Source of the DNA: a virus
Taxonomy: Duplodnaviria > Heunggongvirae > Uroviricota > Caudoviricetes
Direction: 5' to 3' (one strand)
Length of the DNA stretch: 64,000 nucleotides
Virus record (IMG/VR): IMGVR_UViG_2880395615_000008
The notes under the pieces are model-generated. The model ran no database searches, was not told the origin of the DNA, and saw only the letters and a list, made by a program, of their open reading frames with translations. Positions 4,364 to 58,957 of the stretch are shown here, piece by piece. Numbering within the stretch: the first letter of the stretch is position 1; every line of letters starts with the position of its first letter. The translations under genes and the position numbers were made by a program.

Positions 4364-4494
4364 ATTTTATTTAATAACTCCCGTTCGTGTTTTCTCTTGT
4401 TAATGGCATCTTCAGTAAATACAGGGTTACTGATAGTGACACCAATTTCAAAACAACCTTCAGACGTATTAACGTTTGGTAATAACGTTTCCAT
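4306..4494 (-). CDS. dicB: Cell-division inhibitor DicB homologue (62 aa from internal Met of ORF 4306..4599)
   Basis: METLLPNVNTSEGCFEIGVTISNPVFTEDAINKRKHERELLNKICILSMLARL... matches remembered Qin DicB; sits directly 3' of a DicF-like sequence as in the dicBF operon. Confidence 0.7.
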   Translation of the reverse strand: METLLPNVNTSEGCFEIGVTISNPVFTEDAINKRKHERELLNKICILSMLARLRPIQKGCWQ

Positions 4495-4663
4495 TATCGC
4501 GTCCTCAACAATGAATTTTGTGATGCGGTGCCTGGTGCCTCCAGGTGACGTTAACCAGTTAACAATTAACGCCGGATACAGTGAATCCCCCCATAACACT
4601 GTTTTTAGCTTTAACTGTTCCGCGTGCGCTTAGCCGCATTCACTGCATCACAAAATTCACTTT

Positions 4664-4719
4664 AAAAAGGGCGGACATCAGTTCATGGGCAAACAGATGC
4701 CGCCAAACGTCACCAGAAA
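4664..4719 (-). ncRNA. dicF: DicF-like small RNA, divergent variant
   Basis: Minus strand reads TTTCTGGTGACGTTTGGCGG-CATCTGTTTGCCCATGAACTGATGT-CCGCCCTTTTT: conserved DicF 5' end and terminator stem, replaced central/3' body. Confidence 0.55.
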
Positions 4720-18889: not shown

Positions 18890-19096
18890 ATGGAAAAAAT
18901 CACAACAGGTGTGTCATACACCACGTCAGCGGTGGGGACGGGATACTGGTTACTGCAGCTGCTGGACAAAGTCTCTCCGTCCCAGTGGGTGGCAATAGGT
19001 GTGCTGGGAAGTCTGCTGTTTGGCCTGCTGACGTATCTGACAAATCTTTATTTCAAGATTAAAGAAGATAAGCGTAAGGCTGCGAGAGGTGAATAA
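18890..19096 (+). CDS. Class II holin (phage 21 S-type)
   Basis: 68 aa, two TM segments ([38 protein letters not shown]), charged C-terminus; precedes endolysin. Confidence 0.8.
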
Positions 19097-19593
19097 TGTC
19101 GCCGTCATTACGCAAGGCTGTTGCAGCTGCTATTGGTGGTGGGGCTGTTGCCATAGCGTCTGTGCTCATCACTGGTCCAGGTGGTAACGATGGTCTGGAA
19201 GGTGTCAGCTACATACCATACAAAGATATCGTTGGCGTATGGACTGTATGTCACGGACACACCGGAAAAGACATCATGCCCGGTAAAACGTATACCGAAG
19301 CAGAATGCAAAGCCCTCCTGAATAAAGACCTTGCCACGGTCGCCAGACAAATTAACCCGTACATCAACGTCGATATACCGGAAACAACGCGCGGCGCTCT
19401 TTACTCGTTCGTTTACAACGTGGGCGCTGGCAATTTCAGAACATCGACGCTTCTTCGCAAAATAAACCAGGGCGATATCAAAGGCGCATGTGATCAGCTA
19501 CGGCGCTGGACATACGCTGGCGGTAAGCAATGGAAAGGGCTGATGACTCGCCGCGAGATTGAGCGTGAAGTCTGTTTGTGGGGGCAACAATGA
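19096..19593 (+). CDS. SAR endolysin (lysozyme, phage 21 R-type)
   Basis: 165 aa, N-terminal signal-arrest-release segment ([18 protein letters not shown]) and lysozyme-like body. Confidence 0.8.
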
Positions 19594-20057
19594 GCAGGGT
19601 AACCGTTATTATCTCCGCTCTGGTTATCTGCATTATCGCCTGCCTGTCATGGGCTGTTAATCATTACCGCGATAACGCCATTACCTACAAAGCGCAACGC
19701 GATAAAAAAGCCAGTGAGCTGAAGCTGGCGAACGTGACAATTACTGATATGCAGGTACGCCAGCGTGATGTCGCTGCACTTGATGCCAGATACTCGAGGG
19801 AATTAGCCGATGCGAGAGCTGAAAATGAAACTCTGCGTGCTGATGTTGCCGCTGGTCGTAAGCGCCTGCGCATCAACGCCAACTGTCCAGGCTCCTTGCG
19901 TAAAGCCCCCATCACCTCCGGCGTGGGTAATGCAACCGGTCCCCGACTGGCAGAAGCCGCTGAACGGGATTATTTCATCCTCAGAGAACGGCTGATGGCA
20001 ATGCAGAAGCAACTGGAAGGAGCACAGGAATATATCCGTACCCAGTGTATACCGTGA
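19590..20057 (+). CDS. Rz-like i-spanin
   Basis: N-terminal TM segment, coiled-coil, C-terminal Cys; contains embedded Rz1-like frame. Confidence 0.65.
19825..19995 (+). CDS. Rz1-like o-spanin lipoprotein embedded in Rz
   Basis: [15 protein letters not shown] lipobox, proline-rich mature part. Confidence 0.6.
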
Positions 20058-20522
20058 TGTTTTGTTATGAAGATGTTACTGGTAACATTAAGGTAATTTA
20101 ACAAAGAGTCAGTTCCGGACTTTATAGTGTGCTCAGTTCATGGCCAAAAACGATTTCTGTGATAAATATTTTGAATATTATTTACAGGTAAATGGAGTGG
20201 GGCGCATGGATAGAAATATTACAATAGAGTATGAAGTATATGCCCGTATTGTATGGGCAGAGAAGGCAAAAACACGGTAATTCCGTGTGTTGCCATGATA
20301 CCTGATTGGCAGAATAGTTGTTTGGTTTTGAGTATATAGTCAGCGTTTTTTGTTCAGTAATTGCCCCCTCAAAAAATAATAAAATAAGGTGATTATTTTT
20401 GTTTATTATTTAGTTTTTTTTGTGTGTTATTTTATTGTTTTTGCGTGGTTTGTTTTTTATTGTTATTTCATTAAGGGAAGGTAAATTCAGGATGGCAGTC
20501 TGTAGATAATCGGAGGTCACTT

Positions 20523-20837
20523 ATGCTACATGATCACGTGGCAGAATGTCTGGAGAAAAAAGGACTGTACCGGAGAGCAGCTGAACGATGGGCAAAAGTG
20601 ATGGTACAGCTAAGTGATGACCAGAAAAGAAAAGTGGCGGCACAGAAACGAGCAGAGTGTTTGCGTAAGGCGCGCCGGACTCCGGTTTCACCGGTGAACC
20701 TGACCGAAATAAAACAAGCGGTCAACAGACTACATTCTGAGTTGGGAATGGGATTTGAAGAGCGGCGGGTATTCCGACGATATAAAGGGACAGGAGAACA
20801 GAATACGTCCGGAAACGCGCGGTCAAAAAAATGCTAA
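20523..20837 (+). CDS. PerC-family transcriptional regulator (Pch-like)
   Basis: 104 aa with LEKKGLYRRAAERW motif; AT/T-rich upstream region 20100-20520; location between lysis genes and terminase. Confidence 0.5.
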   Translation: MLHDHVAECLEKKGLYRRAAERWAKVMVQLSDDQKRKVAAQKRAECLRKARRTPVSPVNLTEIKQAVNRLHSELGMGFEERRVFRRYKGTGEQNTSGNARSKKC

Positions 20838-20918
20838 AAAATATCTGAGAGAGTTATTGCCTGTTACCATAAGAAAAAGCGACTTTAGTGGTCGCTTTTT
20901 GTGTCATATATAAGTCGT

Positions 20919-21143
20919 TTAAGTAAACCTGTCTGAACAGGTGCTCTGGTCGTGTTTGTCTTTGTTGGGTACAAATTGAGAATATTTTTCATTAATTAAT
21001 CTTCTTCTGCAGGCTTCAATAACCCACGCTGAAAAATTACCTGAACCTTTCTGGTCAAGAGCGATGTTAATTTGTTCAATCATCTGGTTTGGAAATCGGA
21101 TGTTGCGGGTTGTTGTTCTGCGGGTCCGGTTTTTCGGTGACAT
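20919..21143 (-). CDS. Possible ribbon-helix-helix (Arc/CopG-like) DNA-binding protein
   Basis: 74-aa ORF; RNIRFPNQMIEQINIALDQKGSGNFSAWVIEACRRRL pattern. Confidence 0.3.
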   Translation of the reverse strand: MSPKNRTRRTTTRNIRFPNQMIEQINIALDQKGSGNFSAWVIEACRRRLINEKYSQFVPNKDKHDQSTCSDRFT

Positions 21144-21184
21144 TTTCTTTCCTCTGGTGACAAGCTATATGGCGAGGATTTTAC

Positions 21185-21715
21185 ATGGCCGTGCTTCGTA
21201 CGTTACCGGGCAGAATCAAAACTCTGAATACCCGGCGGGTGAATGTCCTGAAGGGTGAACAGCGTCGGGTCAGTGGCAGTGCCCGGGTTTCCCTCAAGCG
21301 TCGTATCTGGCTGAGGGATGCCGGACAGTGCTGTCTCTGTGGGCGTGTGGTTGACCTTTGTGACAGTGAACTCGATCACCGCATTGCACTTCAGTTCGGT
21401 GGTGGTAATGAGGAGACGAATCTCTGGACGCTCTGTACCGAATGCCATCGCCAGAAGTCAGTCAGTGAAACGGCGAGTGGTATGCCGGACCCGACGCTGC
21501 CGGAGGTCATGGCAGGGCAGACGATATCATCGGACTGTGACCCGCCCCGGGGGGGGGATCATCCGGCGAAAAAAACGATCGCCCCGGACACCGCCCCCCG
21601 TCTCATGCAGAGAAAAAATTCCTGTTTCAGGCCAGTTAACATGTTAACTGGCTGCCCGGGCATTTTTTCGGTTTTTATCTTTATTATTCAGTTTGTTGTG
21701 CGAAAAAAATGTTAA
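21185..21715 (+). CDS. HNH endonuclease (terminase-associated)
   Basis: CxxC...DHRIALQFGGGNEETNLWTLCTECHRQK HNH motif; immediately upstream of terminase small subunit. 3' end of ORF may be over-extended. Confidence 0.7.
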   Translation: MAVLRTLPGRIKTLNTRRVNVLKGEQRRVSGSARVSLKRRIWLRDAGQCCLCGRVVDLCDSELDHRIALQFGGGNEETNLWTLCTECHRQKSVSETASGMPDPTLPEVMAGQTISSDCDPPRGGDHPAKKTIAPDTAPRLMQRKNSCFRPVNMLTGCPGIFSVFIFIIQFVVRKKC

Positions 21716-21830: not shown

Positions 21831-22394
21831 GTGCTGACAACGCAAAAACGAAAATTTGCGCTGGCGCTCATGTCCGGGAAAAACAAAACAGCGTCAGCCC
21901 TTGCCGCCGGTTATTCGGCGAAGACCGCCAGGATTAAAGGCTCGCAGCTGGCAAAAGATCCGGAGGTGCTCGCGTTTATAGCCCGTAAACAGTGCGAAAC
22001 GGTGGAGGTGGATGAGGTTCCTGTTTACCGGCAGAAAAAATCAGAGCAGGAGGATAAACCCCGTCGCCGTGAGGTGGCTGCAATACCACAGCCGGACGAA
22101 ACAAATCCGGAGATGCCTCCGCCCGCGGTGATATCTCATGGTATTGAATATATGGAGGATGGTCTTCCCGATCCGGTGAAAGCTATGGGGCAGATCCTGG
22201 TGGAAAACCTGATAATTGACCCGAAACTGGCACTGGATGCGGCCTGGCGACTGGCGCAGTTCACACACCATAAAAAAGGCGATGCCGGTAAAAAATCGGC
22301 AAAAGGTGATGCCGCGAAAAAAGCGGCTAACCGTTTTTCGGTGCCACCATCTCCCCGACTGGTGGTGAATAACCAGAATGAGGAAAGCGGATGA
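21831..22394 (+). CDS. Terminase small subunit
   Basis: 187 aa with N-terminal HTH (KRKFALALMSGKNKTASALAAGYSAKTA); overlaps terminase large start. Confidence 0.65.
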   Translation: MLTTQKRKFALALMSGKNKTASALAAGYSAKTARIKGSQLAKDPEVLAFIARKQCETVEVDEVPVYRQKKSEQEDKPRRREVAAIPQPDETNPEMPPPAVISHGIEYMEDGLPDPVKAMGQILVENLIIDPKLALDAAWRLAQFTHHKKGDAGKKSAKGDAAKKAANRFSVPPSPRLVVNNQNEESG

Positions 22395-24052
22395 TACCTG
22401 TATGGAGCACGGCATGTCCGGACTGGGCAGAGCGCCTGAAAAAGGGACTGTCGATTATTCCGGCTCCGATTTATCCGGACCAGGCTGCACATGCACTGGC
22501 GATTTTTAAACAACTGCGGATTGTGGATGCACCGGGTAGCCCGACGTTCGGGGAGTCCTGCGCACAGTGGGTGTTTGACCTGGTGGCGGCCCTGTTTGGC
22601 TCCTATGATGCGCAGACCGGTGTACGCCATATCAAGGAAGTTTTTATCCTTATCCCCAAGAAAAACAGTAAGTCCACGCTGGCCGCGGGGATCATGATGA
22701 CGGCGCTGTTACTGAACTGGCGGCAGGCGGCGGGCTACACCATTCTGGCCCCGACCGTGGAGGTGGCGGCTAACGCCTTCAACCCTGCCAGGGATATGGT
22801 ACGACGGGACGATGATCTGGATGACCTCTGTCAGGTGCAGACACATATCCGGACCATCACCCATCGGGTGACGGACACCACCCTGAAGGTGGTGGCAGCC
22901 GATCCGAATACGGTGTCCGGTATCAAGTCCGTGGGGACACTGATTGATGAACTGTGGCTGTTTGGCAAGCAGTACAAAGCGGAAGACATGCTACGTGAAG
23001 CCATCGGCGGGCTTGCCTCCCGTCCGGAAGGATTTGTGGTGTACACAACCACCCAGTCGAATGAACCGCCTGCCGGGGTGTTCAGACAGAAACTGCAGTA
23101 CGCCCGGGATGTCCGTGACGGCAAAATTCATGATCCGCACTTTCTGCCGGTGATTTTTGAGCATCCTCCTGAAATGGTGGAAAGCGGGGCTCACCTGCTG
23201 ATGGAAAACCTCGCCATGGTTAACCCGAATCTCGGTTATTCGGTGGATGAGGCTTTTCTGTACCGGGAGTACCGTAAAGCCCGGGAGGCTGGTGAGGAAG
23301 CATTTCGTGGCTTCATGTCAAAACACGCCAATGTGGAAATCGGTCTTGCCCTGCGTTCTGACCGCTGGGCGGGCGCGGATTTCTGGGAGCAGCAGGGCAG
23401 GCGCGTCAGCCTGGACGATATCCTGCAGCGCGCTGATGTGGTGACGGTGGGGATTGACGGCGGGGGCCTGGATGATCTGCTGGGAATGTACGTGATTGGC
23501 CGTGACAGGGAAACCCGCGAATGGCTGGGCTGGGGCCATGCCTGGGTGCATGAAACCGCGGTGGTCAGACGGAAGAGTGAGGCATCCCGGTTTCAGGATT
23601 TTGTGGCCTGTGGAGACATGACGATTGTCCGTCGGGTCGGGGATGACACGGCGGAAGTGGCGGAGTATGTGCGTCGTATTCATGAGGCTGAGTTACTGGA
23701 TCATATCGGTATTGACCCGTCAGGTGTGGGGCAGATTCTGGATTCACTGGCGGAAGCCGGGATCCCCGATGAGAGTGTGGTGGGGATAAGCCAGGGCTGG
23801 AAGCTGGGCGGGGCCATCAAAACCACCGAGCGCAAACTGGCTGAGGGAGTGCTGGTGCATGGTGGTCAGCCACTGATGGCCTGGTGCGTTGGCAATGCCC
23901 GGGTGGAGCCTAAAGGTAACGCCATTCTTATCACCAAACAGGCCAGCGGACGGGGAAAAATTGACCCGCTGATGGCGCTCTTCAATGCGGTGTCCCTGAT
24001 GTCCCTGAATCCGGAACCGAAAAAGAAAGCGTATGAGGTTTTTTTCATATAA
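22391..24052 (+). CDS. Terminase large subunit
   Basis: 553 aa, ATPase plus nuclease arrangement; position. Confidence 0.8.
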   Translation: MIPVWSTACPDWAERLKKGLSIIPAPIYPDQAAHALAIFKQLRIVDAPGSPTFGESCAQWVFDLVAALFGSYDAQTGVRHIKEVFILIPKKNSKSTLAAGIMMTALLLNWRQAAGYTILAPTVEVAANAFNPARDMVRRDDDLDDLCQVQTHIRTITHRVTDTTLKVVAADPNTVSGIKSVGTLIDELWLFGKQYKAEDMLREAIGGLASRPEGFVVYTTTQSNEPPAGVFRQKLQYARDVRDGKIHDPHFLPVIFEHPPEMVESGAHLLMENLAMVNPNLGYSVDEAFLYREYRKAREAGEEAFRGFMSKHANVEIGLALRSDRWAGADFWEQQGRRVSLDDILQRADVVTVGIDGGGLDDLLGMYVIGRDRETREWLGWGHAWVHETAVVRRKSEASRFQDFVACGDMTIVRRVGDDTAEVAEYVRRIHEAELLDHIGIDPSGVGQILDSLAEAGIPDESVVGISQGWKLGGAIKTTERKLAEGVLVHGGQPLMAWCVGNARVEPKGNAILITKQASGRGKIDPLMALFNAVSLMSLNPEPKKKAYEVFFI

Positions 24053-24115
24053 CCCTGCTCACCCTGTAACCATCATGAACCGCTGCGGCGGTTTTTTTAT
24101 TTTCAGGAGGCTGAT

Positions 24116-26053
24116 GTGACTCTTAAACGGGCCTGTTCCCTGCTGACGGTGAAATCCTTCAGTGAGGATGAACGGGTGATCACCGGGATTGCGTCAACGC
24201 CTTCTCCGGATCGGGATGGTGACATCCTGGAGCCGGAGGGGGCGGAGTTTGGCAGTACGATCCCGTTTCTCTGGCAGCATGACCATTCCCGCCCTGTAGG
24301 CCAGTGTACGGTGCGTCGGGTCAGGGAAGGGCTGGAAATCACGGCAATGCTGGTGAAGCCGGAGCCGGGGATGCCCTCCCAGATGGCAGCCCGGCTGGAT
24401 GAGGCCTGGGCTGCCATTAAGACCGGGCTGGTCAGGGGGCTTTCTGTGGGCTTCCGGCCCCATGAATACACTTATCTGGACGGAGGCGGACTGCATTTTC
24501 TGCGCTGGGAACTGATGGAGGTGTCTGCCGTCACCGTGCCCGCGAATGCGGAATGCACCATCCGGACCATTAAATCTTTCGGCAGCCCGTTTTCTGCCGC
24601 GTCCGGCAACCGGAGACCGGTGGTGAAAATCGCATCTTCTGCCGGCGCTTCGGCACAGTCAATAACCTCTTTTCATAAGGAAAAGTCAGCAATGAATACT
24701 GGTGAACAGATTAAAAGTTTTGAAAACAAGCGTGCGGCGCTGGCAGCCTCCCTTGAGGAGATCATGAACAAAGCCGCAGAGGAAGGCCGCACACTGGATG
24801 TGGAAGAGGAAGAGCACTACGACAACACCGCAGCGGAAATCCGTCAGGTGGATGCGCACCTGAAGCGTCTGCGTGAACTGGAAACCAGTAAGGCCGCCAC
24901 GGCACAGCCGGTGAAACAGGCCGGTAACGGGAATGTGGCCACGGTGGCTTCAGCGCCGGTGATCTGTGTTGAGCAGAAACTGGAGAAGGGGATTGGTTTC
25001 GCCCGCTTTGCCAAATCACTGGCCGCGGCTAAAGGTGTCCGCTCTGAAGCCCTGGAAGTGGCCCGTCGTCAGTATCCGGATGACAGTCGTCTGCATCATG
25101 TCCTGAAATCGGCGGTGGGGGCAGGGACCACCACGGACCCACAGTGGGCAGGCAGCCTGTCTGAATATCAGGAATATGCGCAGGACTTTATTGATTACCT
25201 GCGTCCGCAGACCATTATCGGGCGATTTGGTCAGGGCGGGATCCCTGCACTTCGTCTGGTGCCGTTCAATATCCGCGTGCATGCCCAGGTGTCCGGCGGT
25301 GCTGCCGGCTGGGTGGGGGAGGGTAAGGCCAGACCCCTGACGAAGTTTGATTTTGAGTCCATCACCTTCAGTCATGCGAAGGTGTCGGCCATTGCGGTAC
25401 TGACGGAAGAGCTGATCCGCTTTTCCAGTCCGGCAGCTGATGCACTGGTCCGTAATGCGCTGGCAGAAGCGGTGGTGGCGCGTCTGGACACAGACTTTGT
25501 GGACCCGAAAAAAGCTGCAGTGGCAGATGTCTCCCCGGCGTCCATCACCCATGATGTGAAGGGCACGGCATCAACCGGTAACCCGGATGCGGATGCCGAG
25601 GCCGCGTTTGGCCAGTTTGTGACGGCAAATCTGCAGCCCACTGGTGCTGTCTGGCTGATGTCCAGCACGAATGCCCTGGCGCTGTCCATGCGTAAAAATG
25701 CGCTGGGTCAGAAGGAATATCCGGACATGACCCTGCTGGGCGGGACCTTTCAGGGGCTTCCGGTGATTGTCTCCCAGTATGTGGGTGACCAGCTGGTACT
25801 GGTGAATGCACCGGATATTTATCTGGCGGATGACGGCGGTGTGGCAGTGGATATGTCCCGTGAAGCGTCACTGGAAATGCAGTCTGAGCCGGGCGGCGAC
25901 AGCACCACACCGTCGCCGGTGGAGCTGGTTTCCATGTTCCAGACCGGCAGCGTGGCCATCCGTGCGGAGCGCTGGATCAACTGGCGTCGTCGCCGTACTG
26001 CGGCGGTGGCTGTGATCACCGGTGTGAACTACGGCAGTGCGTCCGGCGGCTGA
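24116..26053 (+). CDS. Prohead protease - major capsid protein fusion (HK97 family)
   Basis: N-terminal about 170 aa resembles HK97 prohead protease (FLWQHDHSRPVGQ...VSAVTVPAN); remainder has coiled-coil then HK97-fold capsid-like sequence. Confidence 0.65.
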   Translation: MTLKRACSLLTVKSFSEDERVITGIASTPSPDRDGDILEPEGAEFGSTIPFLWQHDHSRPVGQCTVRRVREGLEITAMLVKPEPGMPSQMAARLDEAWAAIKTGLVRGLSVGFRPHEYTYLDGGGLHFLRWELMEVSAVTVPANAECTIRTIKSFGSPFSAASGNRRPVVKIASSAGASAQSITSFHKEKSAMNTGEQIKSFENKRAALAASLEEIMNKAAEEGRTLDVEEEEHYDNTAAEIRQVDAHLKRLRELETSKAATAQPVKQAGNGNVATVASAPVICVEQKLEKGIGFARFAKSLAAAKGVRSEALEVARRQYPDDSRLHHVLKSAVGAGTTTDPQWAGSLSEYQEYAQDFIDYLRPQTIIGRFGQGGIPALRLVPFNIRVHAQVSGGAAGWVGEGKARPLTKFDFESITFSHAKVSAIAVLTEELIRFSSPAADALVRNALAEAVVARLDTDFVDPKKAAVADVSPASITHDVKGTASTGNPDADAEAAFGQFVTANLQPTGAVWLMSSTNALALSMRKNALGQKEYPDMTLLGGTFQGLPVIVSQYVGDQLVLVNAPDIYLADDGGVAVDMSREASLEMQSEPGGDSTTPSPVELVSMFQTGSVAIRAERWINWRRRRTAAVAVITGVNYGSASGG

Positions 26054-26097
26054 GTCTGATGAGGAGGGCGGGAGGTGAGAGCGTCCCGCAGTAACTG

Positions 26098-26319
26098 ATG
26101 GCAAAAATCCGATATCTGCAGGGTACACATGATGCCCGGCCCGGGGATATCCGGGATGTCGCACAGCCGTGTGCGGAGGTGCTGGTTCGCCTGGGAAAGG
26201 CGGAGTACATCACAGCGCGACGTCCGGCGGGTCAGAAAAAGAAACATGATGCGGAGCATAGCGAATGTGGAACCTTTTGCGACGAACCCGAAAAAACCAG
26301 AAATCAGGACGTGATGTAA
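26098..26319 (+). CDS. Hypothetical small ORF between capsid and portal genes
   Basis: 73-aa ORF only. Confidence 0.2.
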   Translation: MAKIRYLQGTHDARPGDIRDVAQPCAEVLVRLGKAEYITARRPAGQKKKHDAEHSECGTFCDEPEKTRNQDVM

Positions 26320-27629
26320 AAGAGGTGGGCTGGACCAGCCTGTTTCAGGCGGTGGCTGAGCCCTTTGCCGGCGCCTGGCAGCAGGGTGTGAAAGCCGATC
26401 CGGAAAGTGTCCTCTCCTTTCATGCGGTGTTTTCTTGCATTTCGCTGATATCCCAGGATATCGCCAAAATGCGGCTGCGCCTGATGCAGACGGATACACA
26501 GGGGATCCGCTGTGAAAAACGGCAGGGGGATATTGCCCGTCTCTGTCGTCGTCCCAATGCACAGCAGAATCGTATCCAGTTTTTTGAACTGTGGCTGAAC
26601 GCCAAACTGCGTCACGGCAATACGGTGGTGCTGAAAATCCGTAACTCCCGGGGGCAGATCAAAGAACTGCGTATTCTGGACTGGAGCCGGGTTGAACCTC
26701 TGGTGGCGGATGACGGCGAGGTGTTCTATCGCATCACGCCGGACCGGAACTGCGGGATCACGGAGGCGGTGACGGTGCCTGCCCGGGAAGTGATCCACGA
26801 CCGGTTTAACTGTTTTTTTCATCCGCTTGTGGGGCTGCCGCCGGTGTATGCCGCCGGGCTGGCGGCCACGCAGGGGCATCATATTCAGGAAAATTCGACG
26901 TCTTTTTTCAGAAATGGCGGCAGGCCGTCCGGGGTGATTGAGATCCCCGGCAGTATTACGGAAGAAAATGCGAAAAAACTGAAGAGCAACTGGGACAGCG
27001 GGTATACCGGCGAAAATGCGGGGAAAACGGCCATTTTGAGCAACGGGGCAAAATACAACCCCACGACGTTTTCACCGGTGGATGCGCAGACGGTGGAACA
27101 ACTGAAGATGACCGCTGAAATTGTCTGTTCGGTGTTCCGTGTCCCGGCCTACAAGATTGGCGTTGGCCAGCCACCTTCCAGTGACAACGTGGAGGCGCTG
27201 GAGCAGCAGTATTATTCCCAGTGCCTGCAGACGCTGATTGAGTCCATTGAACTGTTACTGGATGAGGCGCTGGAAACGGGGGAAAACGAGAGTACGGAGT
27301 TTGACGTCACCACGCTGCTGAGAATGGACAGCGAACGGCGCATGAAAACGCTGGGTGAGTCGGTGAAAAATACGCTTCTCACGCCCAATGAGGCCCGTAA
27401 ACGTGAGAACCTGCCGCCCCTTGCGGGAGGTGATGCACTGTATCTTCAGCAGCAGAACTACAGTCTGGAGGCGCTGTCCCGTCGTGATGCCCGTGAAGAT
27501 CCGTTTGCGTCGTCCGGGAAAAGAGTTTCAGCCCAACTGCCTGACGGCGCATCTGACGGTAATAAGGCAATCAGTGAAACAGAGCATGGTGCGGTGAAAG
27601 CGATGTTGAGGGGGATACTGCGAAAATGA
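26265..27629 (+). CDS. Portal protein (HK97 family)
   Basis: 454 aa; FFRNGGRPSGVIEIPGSITEENAKKLKSNWDSGYTGENAGKTAILSNGAKY...FRVPAYKIGV typical of HK97-type portals. Confidence 0.75.
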   Translation: MWNLLRRTRKNQKSGRDVKEVGWTSLFQAVAEPFAGAWQQGVKADPESVLSFHAVFSCISLISQDIAKMRLRLMQTDTQGIRCEKRQGDIARLCRRPNAQQNRIQFFELWLNAKLRHGNTVVLKIRNSRGQIKELRILDWSRVEPLVADDGEVFYRITPDRNCGITEAVTVPAREVIHDRFNCFFHPLVGLPPVYAAGLAATQGHHIQENSTSFFRNGGRPSGVIEIPGSITEENAKKLKSNWDSGYTGENAGKTAILSNGAKYNPTTFSPVDAQTVEQLKMTAEIVCSVFRVPAYKIGVGQPPSSDNVEALEQQYYSQCLQTLIESIELLLDEALETGENESTEFDVTTLLRMDSERRMKTLGESVKNTLLTPNEARKRENLPPLAGGDALYLQQQNYSLEALSRRDAREDPFASSGKRVSAQLPDGASDGNKAISETEHGAVKAMLRGILRK

Positions 27630-58899: not shown

Positions 58900-58957
58900 A
58901 AAAAGGGCGGCAGAGCAGCCACGGAGTAAAACTGATACCGCCAAACGTCACCAGAAA
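58900..58957 (-). ncRNA. dicF: DicF small RNA (canonical-type)
   Basis: Minus strand reads TTTCTGGTGACGTTTGGCGGTATCAGTTTTACTCCGTGGCTGCTCTGCCGCCCTTTTT, about one substitution from remembered K-12 DicF. Confidence 0.8.

Follow-up and report, generated by a model that had tools for sequence, protein, structure and literature searches.

The gene analyzed here, denoted pch, lies within a 64,000-nt stretch of virus DNA (hereinafter, the window), where it is preceded by the genes for a P21-type holin, a lysozyme, and an Rz protein and followed by those for an HNH endonuclease and for the small and large terminase subunits (Table 1), so that the placement between lysis and packaging genes given in the initial annotation, which was made from the sequence alone, holds. 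The Rz gene and pch are separated by a long non-coding, AT-rich spacer, the 3′ part of which encompasses a T-rich core and a conserved leader, and pch itself is followed by an intrinsic terminator and by a gene of the YlcI/YnfO family on the opposite strand. Position 20100, from which the initial annotation had started the feature, falls inside the spacer, which occupies 20058–20522, and coincides with no feature.

Table 1 Features of the pch locus and the two dicF copies in the window (positions are those of the window).
Feature	Positions	Strand	Remarks
Diverged dicF copy	4669–4718	-	Rfam DicF, 43.5 bits (gathering score 48), E 8.5e-8 on 1.6 kb
P21-type holin	18890–19096		Upstream of pch
Lysozyme	19096–19593		Upstream of pch
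Rz	19578–20057		Upstream of pch; Pfam Phage_lysis, E 2e-46
Cargo (moron) segment	20036–21008	+	Without homology to K-12 prophage DLP12
Non-coding AT-rich spacer	20058–20522	+	465 nt, Rz stop to pch start; presumed regulatory region and 5′ leader
T-rich core	20330–20475	+	146 nt; GC 24%, T 52.7%, A 23.3%
Conserved leader	20453–20522	+	Shine-Dalgarno GGAGG at 20512–20516; E. albertii pch homology starts at 20453
pchA-type gene	20523–20837	+	ATG start, 104 aa; PerC-family transcriptional activator
ACCAGAAA	20620–20627	+	In the pch CDS, complementary to DicF nt 1–8; candidate part of the published pairing site
Bidirectional intrinsic terminator	20874–20900	.	A5-GCGAC-loop-GUCGC-U5; 11-bp hairpin with flanking A and T tracts
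YlcI/YnfO-family (DUF3950) gene	20919–21143	-	Pfam DUF3950, E 9.7e-20; NCBIfam YlcI_YnfO_N
HNH endonuclease gene	start 21185		Downstream of pch
Small terminase gene	21831–22394		Downstream of pch
Large terminase gene	22391–24052		Downstream of pch
Canonical dicF sRNA gene	58905–58956	-	Rfam DicF, 75 bits, full length

The product of the ORF contains the RRAAERW-type motif that had been noted initially: residues 15–24 read LYRRAAERWA and belong to an N-terminal conserved PerC block (GLYRRAAERWA, residues 14–24) which, in a comparison of the sequences, is unaltered in the homologs from E. albertii and Escherichia sp. The assignment to the PerC/Pch family made on that occasion was confirmed by the profile search proposed along with it as a check. 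The product matches the Pfam family PerC (PF06069) with 149.3 bits (cut-off 22.6; E 3.8e-44), and the match spans residues 1–89 on profile positions 1–89 of 90, that is, the whole domain. Among the PHROGs families, the best assignment is phrog_994, with weaker matches to “transcriptional activator” families; in NCBIfam, there is no model for this product. A search of the PDB at E<=1 yielded no sequence relatives, and a single-sequence AlphaFold2 model of the 104-aa protein (mean pLDDT 51, pTM 0.33, four helices) is too poor for a fold search.

The allele was assigned by comparison with the group 1 pch genes of E. coli O157:H7 Sakai, namely, pchA (ECs_1091, prophage Sp4), pchB (ECs_2182, Sp11), and pchC (ECs_2737, Sp14). 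The protein encoded in the window is 100% identical to PchA, without a single nucleotide difference in the CDS, and differs from PchB by one amino acid (V6L) and from PchC by two (V6L and V58M). The exact protein is found on at least 1000 contigs of a public collection, where one source lists it under the name “PchABC family transcriptional regulator”, and the O55:H7 ortholog in RefSeq (WP_001303878.1) is annotated as a PerC family regulator. Judged by its sequence, the ORF belongs to the group 1 pch genes (pchA/pchB/pchC) as an allele of the pchA type; no result speaks against this assignment, and both the family and the allele are already known, annotated, and extensively studied.

The surroundings of pch match those of a late-region cargo gene in a lambdoid prophage. 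When the window was compared by blastn with DLP12, a prophage of E. coli K-12, only two segments of this region could be aligned, 18890–20035 (87%) and 21009–21143 (88%). Between the corresponding Rz and ylcI flanks, DLP12 carries borD, ybcV, and ybcW, whereas the window carries the pch segment instead; given that DLP12 has other cargo in this place, the interval between Rz and ylcI can be considered a cargo slot, and pch the cargo of this particular prophage. The ylcI-like gene, the 5′ part of which is homologous to K-12 ylcI, is a neighbor from the phage backbone and lies outside the cargo. The cassette that consists of Rz, the spacer, pch, the terminator, and ylcI (homology over 19651–21143) is also present in Sakai prophages Sp11 and Sp14, where the packaging modules that follow are different. 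The initial annotation had called pch a moron, and this designation gains support from the swap of the slot content relative to DLP12, the deviant composition of the spacer, the presence of a terminator, and the occurrence of the same cassette before different packaging modules, all of which point to a gene carried as a moron in the late region of a lambdoid prophage.

The terminator, a strong hairpin, is common to pch on the plus strand and the convergent ylcI-like gene on the minus strand. The minimum free energy is −17.3 kcal/mol for the 83-nt plus-strand stretch 20838–20920 and −12.3 kcal/mol for the 66-nt minus-strand stretch 20925–20860. A consensus terminator scan missed this element, as its T tract is incorporated into the stem.

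Over its whole length, the spacer contains 33.1% GC, 38.5% T, and 28.4% A, compared to 50.7% GC, 24.9% T, and 24.4% A in the whole window, and only 0.8% of the 465-nt frames in the window are enriched in either A or T to this extent. The distal part (20058–20329, 272 nt; 36.1% GC, 33% T, 31% A) is AT-rich without a T skew, and the strong T-richness is confined to the core, which surpasses every other 146-nt frame of the window in T or A content and includes five runs of 5–8 T (at 20346, 20396, 20414, 20438, and 20453). Of the “about 400 bp” of T-rich upstream DNA described initially, the AT-rich spacer is real, but only about 150–200 nt are strongly T-rich. Such a composition (24–33% GC, T tracts) is by itself consistent with an H-NS-silenced pch promoter, which is a plausible interpretation of the T-rich DNA. 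ChIP-chip data exist for Sakai (PMC4764244). Closer to the gene, the leader motif GATAA..GGAGGT.A.TTATG is invariant or nearly so across six loci.

A promoter scan of the spacer returned 2 sites, compared with 3.1 expected in shuffled sequences, so that none rose above chance; the sole sigma-70-like site on the plus strand is located at 20290–20318 (9 of 12 matches). An Rfam search of 19900–21300 at E<=1 gave no matches. A candidate antisense sRNA of about 100 nt (20405–20262, minus strand), delimited by a sigma-70-like site at 20405–20376 and a terminator-like hairpin with a T-rich tail at 20288–20272, was rejected: neither element is above chance, conservation of the promoter-like site does not extend to pchB, and single uncompensated changes occur in the hairpin in pchB and pchC.

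The spacer and the gene taken together (861 nt) are present in 672 of the 5426 complete E. coli genomes, at a coverage of at least 80% of the 861 nt and with a median of 3 copies per genome, and the annotation is always “PerC family transcriptional regulator”. Across the 873 nt that stretch from the Rz stop to a point 93 nt beyond the pch stop, a single position distinguishes the window from E. coli O55:H7 RM12579, and the 20-kb stretch around pch is about 100% identical to the O55:H7 strains DEC5A and CB9615 over 18–19 kb. The genomes nearest to the window are those of O55:H7, not O157:H7, so that the window most likely derives from the O55:H7 lineage or a very close relative. The LEE island is absent from the 64-kb window. 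The O55:H7 lineage is LEE-positive; from the match to O55:H7 and this general knowledge, we infer that the LEE target is present in the host. We consider it nearly certain that the locus represents a group 1 pchA allele, carried as late-region cargo by a lambdoid prophage with closest matches in O55:H7 and encoding a protein published as an activator of the LEE.

The initial proposal of a Pch regulator of the LEE island is borne out in so far as the protein is identical to the experimentally characterized PchA of O157:H7 Sakai, and it is because of this identity that we apply the published function of PchA to the gene in the window. Group 1 Pch proteins are required for ler and espA to be fully expressed and for adherence (Iyoda and Watanabe 2004, as summarized in PMC6265319 and PMC4456613). 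According to PMC4764244, PchA increases LEE1 promoter activity 110-fold in K-12, this activation is wholly dependent on H-NS/StpA (with Hha), and Pch lowers the occupancy of LEE1 by H-NS both in vivo and in vitro, that is, acts as an anti-silencer, in addition to enhancing the action of Ler at other LEE promoters. The gene in the window would then be expected to activate the LEE1/ler promoter and type III secretion-dependent adherence, as described for the identical protein in PMC4764244 and PMC6265319. Mechanistically, PchA would bind low-GC DNA at the LEE1 (ler) promoter and displace the H-NS/StpA/Hha silencing complex, and the Ler protein produced as a result would switch on the entire LEE type III secretion island together with the associated effectors. 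With pchA being a master switch of attaching-and-effacing virulence, its presence marks the prophage as contributing to LEE activation in the host. Publications from 2004 onward already cover the gene, its family and prophage position, the anti-H-NS mode of action (de-silencing), and multiple levels of its control; the window adds annotation value only.

Among the named Pch and PerC systems, the closest counterpart is Sakai pchA, which also follows the Rz gene of a lambdoid prophage and differs from the window at 8 of the 873 nt (7 differences in the spacer, none in the CDS, and none in the 93 nt before the ATG). In Sakai Sp4 (22131–26376 of the Sp4 sequence analyzed), however, the block that consists of the holin, lysozyme, Rz, and pchA genes is inverted relative to the late region and bounded by IS629, whereas the window retains the uninverted (ancestral) arrangement, with pch followed by ylcI, the HNH endonuclease gene, and the terminase genes. 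PchB and PchC are also 104 aa long, and their genes likewise follow Rz in Sp11 and Sp14, but with different packaging modules downstream. Within the 873 nt, pchB differs from the window at 47 positions, 45 of these in the spacer, and pchC at 30 positions, 26 of these in the spacer. The differences are unevenly distributed: the divergence from pchB and pchC, respectively, is 0.3 and 1.0% in the CDS, 2.1 and 3.8% in the distal spacer (20058–20346), and 22 and 8.5% in the promoter-proximal segment (20347–20522) that holds the T-rich core. The paralogs diverge in the regulatory DNA, not in the protein. This segment-specific divergence fits the differential regulation of pchA and pchB by LrhA reported by Honda et al. 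(2009), as cited in PMC4456613.

PerC of EPEC, encoded by perABC on the pEAF plasmid, belongs to the same family (PF06069) and is also an activator of LEE1/ler; PerC and Pch are interchangeable (Porter et al. 2005, as cited in PMC4764244 and PMC6265319). The two systems differ in that perC is plasmid-borne and is the third gene of an operon under the control of PerA, whereas pch in the window, a prophage moron, is monocistronic and has a spacer and a terminator of its own; according to PMC4764244, the LEE of EPEC leans less on perC than the LEE of EHEC does on pch. Ler, which is encoded in LEE1, similarly relieves H-NS silencing on AT-rich horizontally acquired DNA, as stated in the same paper, but it comes from an unrelated family (being a paralog of H-NS) and is a downstream target of Pch rather than its homolog. 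A more distant relative of pch is found in E. albertii NBRC 107761 (454–2791 of the sequence analyzed; 91% aa identity), at a distance of about 1.7 kb from fliE and outside a setting of phage lysis and terminase genes. Given this location, the family is not restricted to the late-region slot of lambdoid prophages. The homology of the E. albertii locus to the window starts only 70 nt before the ATG, but the 200 nt upstream of the gene there contain 27% GC and 42% T, so that AT/T-rich upstream DNA travels with the pch family even where the sequence differs.

All five Pch proteins match PF06069, so that the profile match alone cannot separate the groups, and the copy in the window could conceivably be of the PchD/PchE type in function. 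These proteins, which represent groups 2 and 3 of EHEC, are also PerC-family members encoded on prophages or prophage-like elements, but they belong to other sequence groups, have other sizes, and exert little or no effect on the LEE; instead, they influence curli, flagella, or biofilm, with PchE serving as a repressor of both curli and flagella (PMC6265319, PMC7369912). The gene in the window lies outside these groups and shares with the group 1 genes the 104-aa length and the prophage position; the sequence identity to PchA and the distance of at most two amino acids from PchB and PchC rule out a PchD/PchE-type function, which we accordingly regard as extremely improbable. It is also very unlikely, in our view, that the spacer holds a second small gene, a 46-aa ORF at 20140–20280 on the plus strand, which would turn the cargo into a two-gene moron. 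Its reading frame is uninterrupted in the window as well as at all three Sakai loci (pchA, pchB, and pchC), and there is a full-length match to phrog_2157 (E 2.3e-37), but PHROGs families take in ORF calls from prophages, and this match may reflect nothing other than DNA conservation. The ATG of the ORF lacks a Shine-Dalgarno sequence, the changes between its copies are 1 synonymous and 9 non-synonymous, a tblastn search of phage records found a pch-upstream fragment as the sole match, there is no such ORF upstream of the E. albertii pch gene, and RefSeq leaves it unannotated in both O55:H7 and Sakai. The 46-aa ORF is probably an ORF-calling artifact that was propagated into PHROGs, not a gene, and the spacer is treated here as non-coding.

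An alternative of greater weight, although still a rather unlikely one, concerns the route of expression: pch might be primarily a passenger of the late operon, expressed by Q-antiterminated read-through from pR′ after SOS induction, in which case the T-rich spacer would be insertion-junction DNA rather than an autonomous H-NS-silenced promoter. The Q gene, the lysis genes, the terminase genes, and pch all lie on one strand, the scan found no plus-strand terminators between Rz and pch and, as indicated above, no promoter above chance in the spacer, and group 1 pch transcripts have been reported to rise on SOS induction (PMC6265319). Such a scheme is at odds with the response of pchA, in uninduced lysogens, to LrhA, which activates pchA and pchB (PMC4456613, PMC13012123), to NtrC/sigma-S (PMC10714755), and to butyrate via Lrp/LeuO (PMC4456613); regulation by LrhA and the other factors implies that a pch promoter exists, and a local one is needed. 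It is also at odds with the AT/T-rich DNA upstream of pch in E. albertii, near fliE and outside any late operon. In a lysogen, transcription of pch would start in the spacer and would be modulated by LrhA, the NtrC/sigma-S pathway, Lrp/butyrate, and other factors. Since pch has the orientation of the late operon and is not separated from Rz by any plus-strand terminator, prophage induction should also raise pch expression by read-through, which is likely to be a second expression route, consistent with the SOS data. Probably, both the spacer promoter and the read-through operate.

An additional layer of control involves translation. As relayed in PMC7769764, PMC7873438, and PMC11774850, Melson and Kendall (2019) described an anti-Shine-Dalgarno sequence in the CDS that sequesters the Shine-Dalgarno sequence of pchA; the sRNA DicF pairs at this site and opens the Shine-Dalgarno sequence under low oxygen. 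We accept this mechanism for pch in the window because the leader (93 nt) and the CDS are identical to those of Sakai pchA; translation would then be held back by the structure in the mRNA until DicF opens it under low oxygen. Folding of the leader with the early CDS (20490–20700) produced a z-score of −0.61 against shuffled sequences, with a Shine-Dalgarno partner that shifts with the chosen boundaries, and the published anti-Shine-Dalgarno sequence was not located independently by folding. The longest exact Watson–Crick matches between canonical DicF and the pch mRNA are a tie between ACCAGAAA and AGAGCAGC (at 20574), an 8-mer alone not being significant; the ACCAGAAA site is conserved in pchB, pchC, and E. 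albertii. An extended DicF:pch duplex was discarded as evidence: RNAduplex predicts −49.8 kcal/mol and 44 pairs over nearly all of DicF, which is only about 2 sd below shuffled sequences (mean −42, sd 3.5), and tiles of the window as duplex partners of DicF average −43 kcal/mol (sd 7).

The window encodes two copies of dicF, with identical first 20 nt. The diverged copy is located in the prophage that also carries pch, in its early-left region, and it is possible that it functions as a trans-activator of pch translation. A weak second match to STnc100 (4475–4680, minus strand; 32 bits, below gathering) adjoins this copy. As a separate observation, the sRNA dicF and its published target pchA appear to share one element. 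One can further speculate that the prophage is a self-contained regulatory module, comprising pchA and its own diverged dicF, and that the near-invariant CDS of the paralogs, together with a T-rich promoter-proximal segment diverging up to 20-fold faster, would suggest selection for different signals, not mere dosage; we consider this joint interpretation improbable.

Several other RNA elements were detected in the window. A tRNA cluster is located at 15270–15510 on the plus strand, downstream of a Q-like gene, in which ARAGORN identifies a Met-type tRNA (CAT), a Lys tRNA (TTT), and an Arg tRNA (TCT); at the matching place in Sakai and O55:H7, the Met-type CAT tRNA is annotated as ileZ, a tRNA-Ile. 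At the gathering score, Rfam reports only the outer two tRNAs of this cluster, and the middle one (15347–15422) may be degenerate or else a variant of the argN that Sakai has in this place. A match to STnc100 (16283–16455, plus strand) lies just ahead of a nanS-p-like esterase gene (16593–18443), and a sok antitoxin RNA is found at 11836–11985 (plus strand). The Hfq-binding sRNA isrC is matched twice on the minus strand, at 32552–32674 and 44806–44928, both times with 150.2 bits and 12.3 kb apart, which means that the window contains either a duplicated segment or two related elements.
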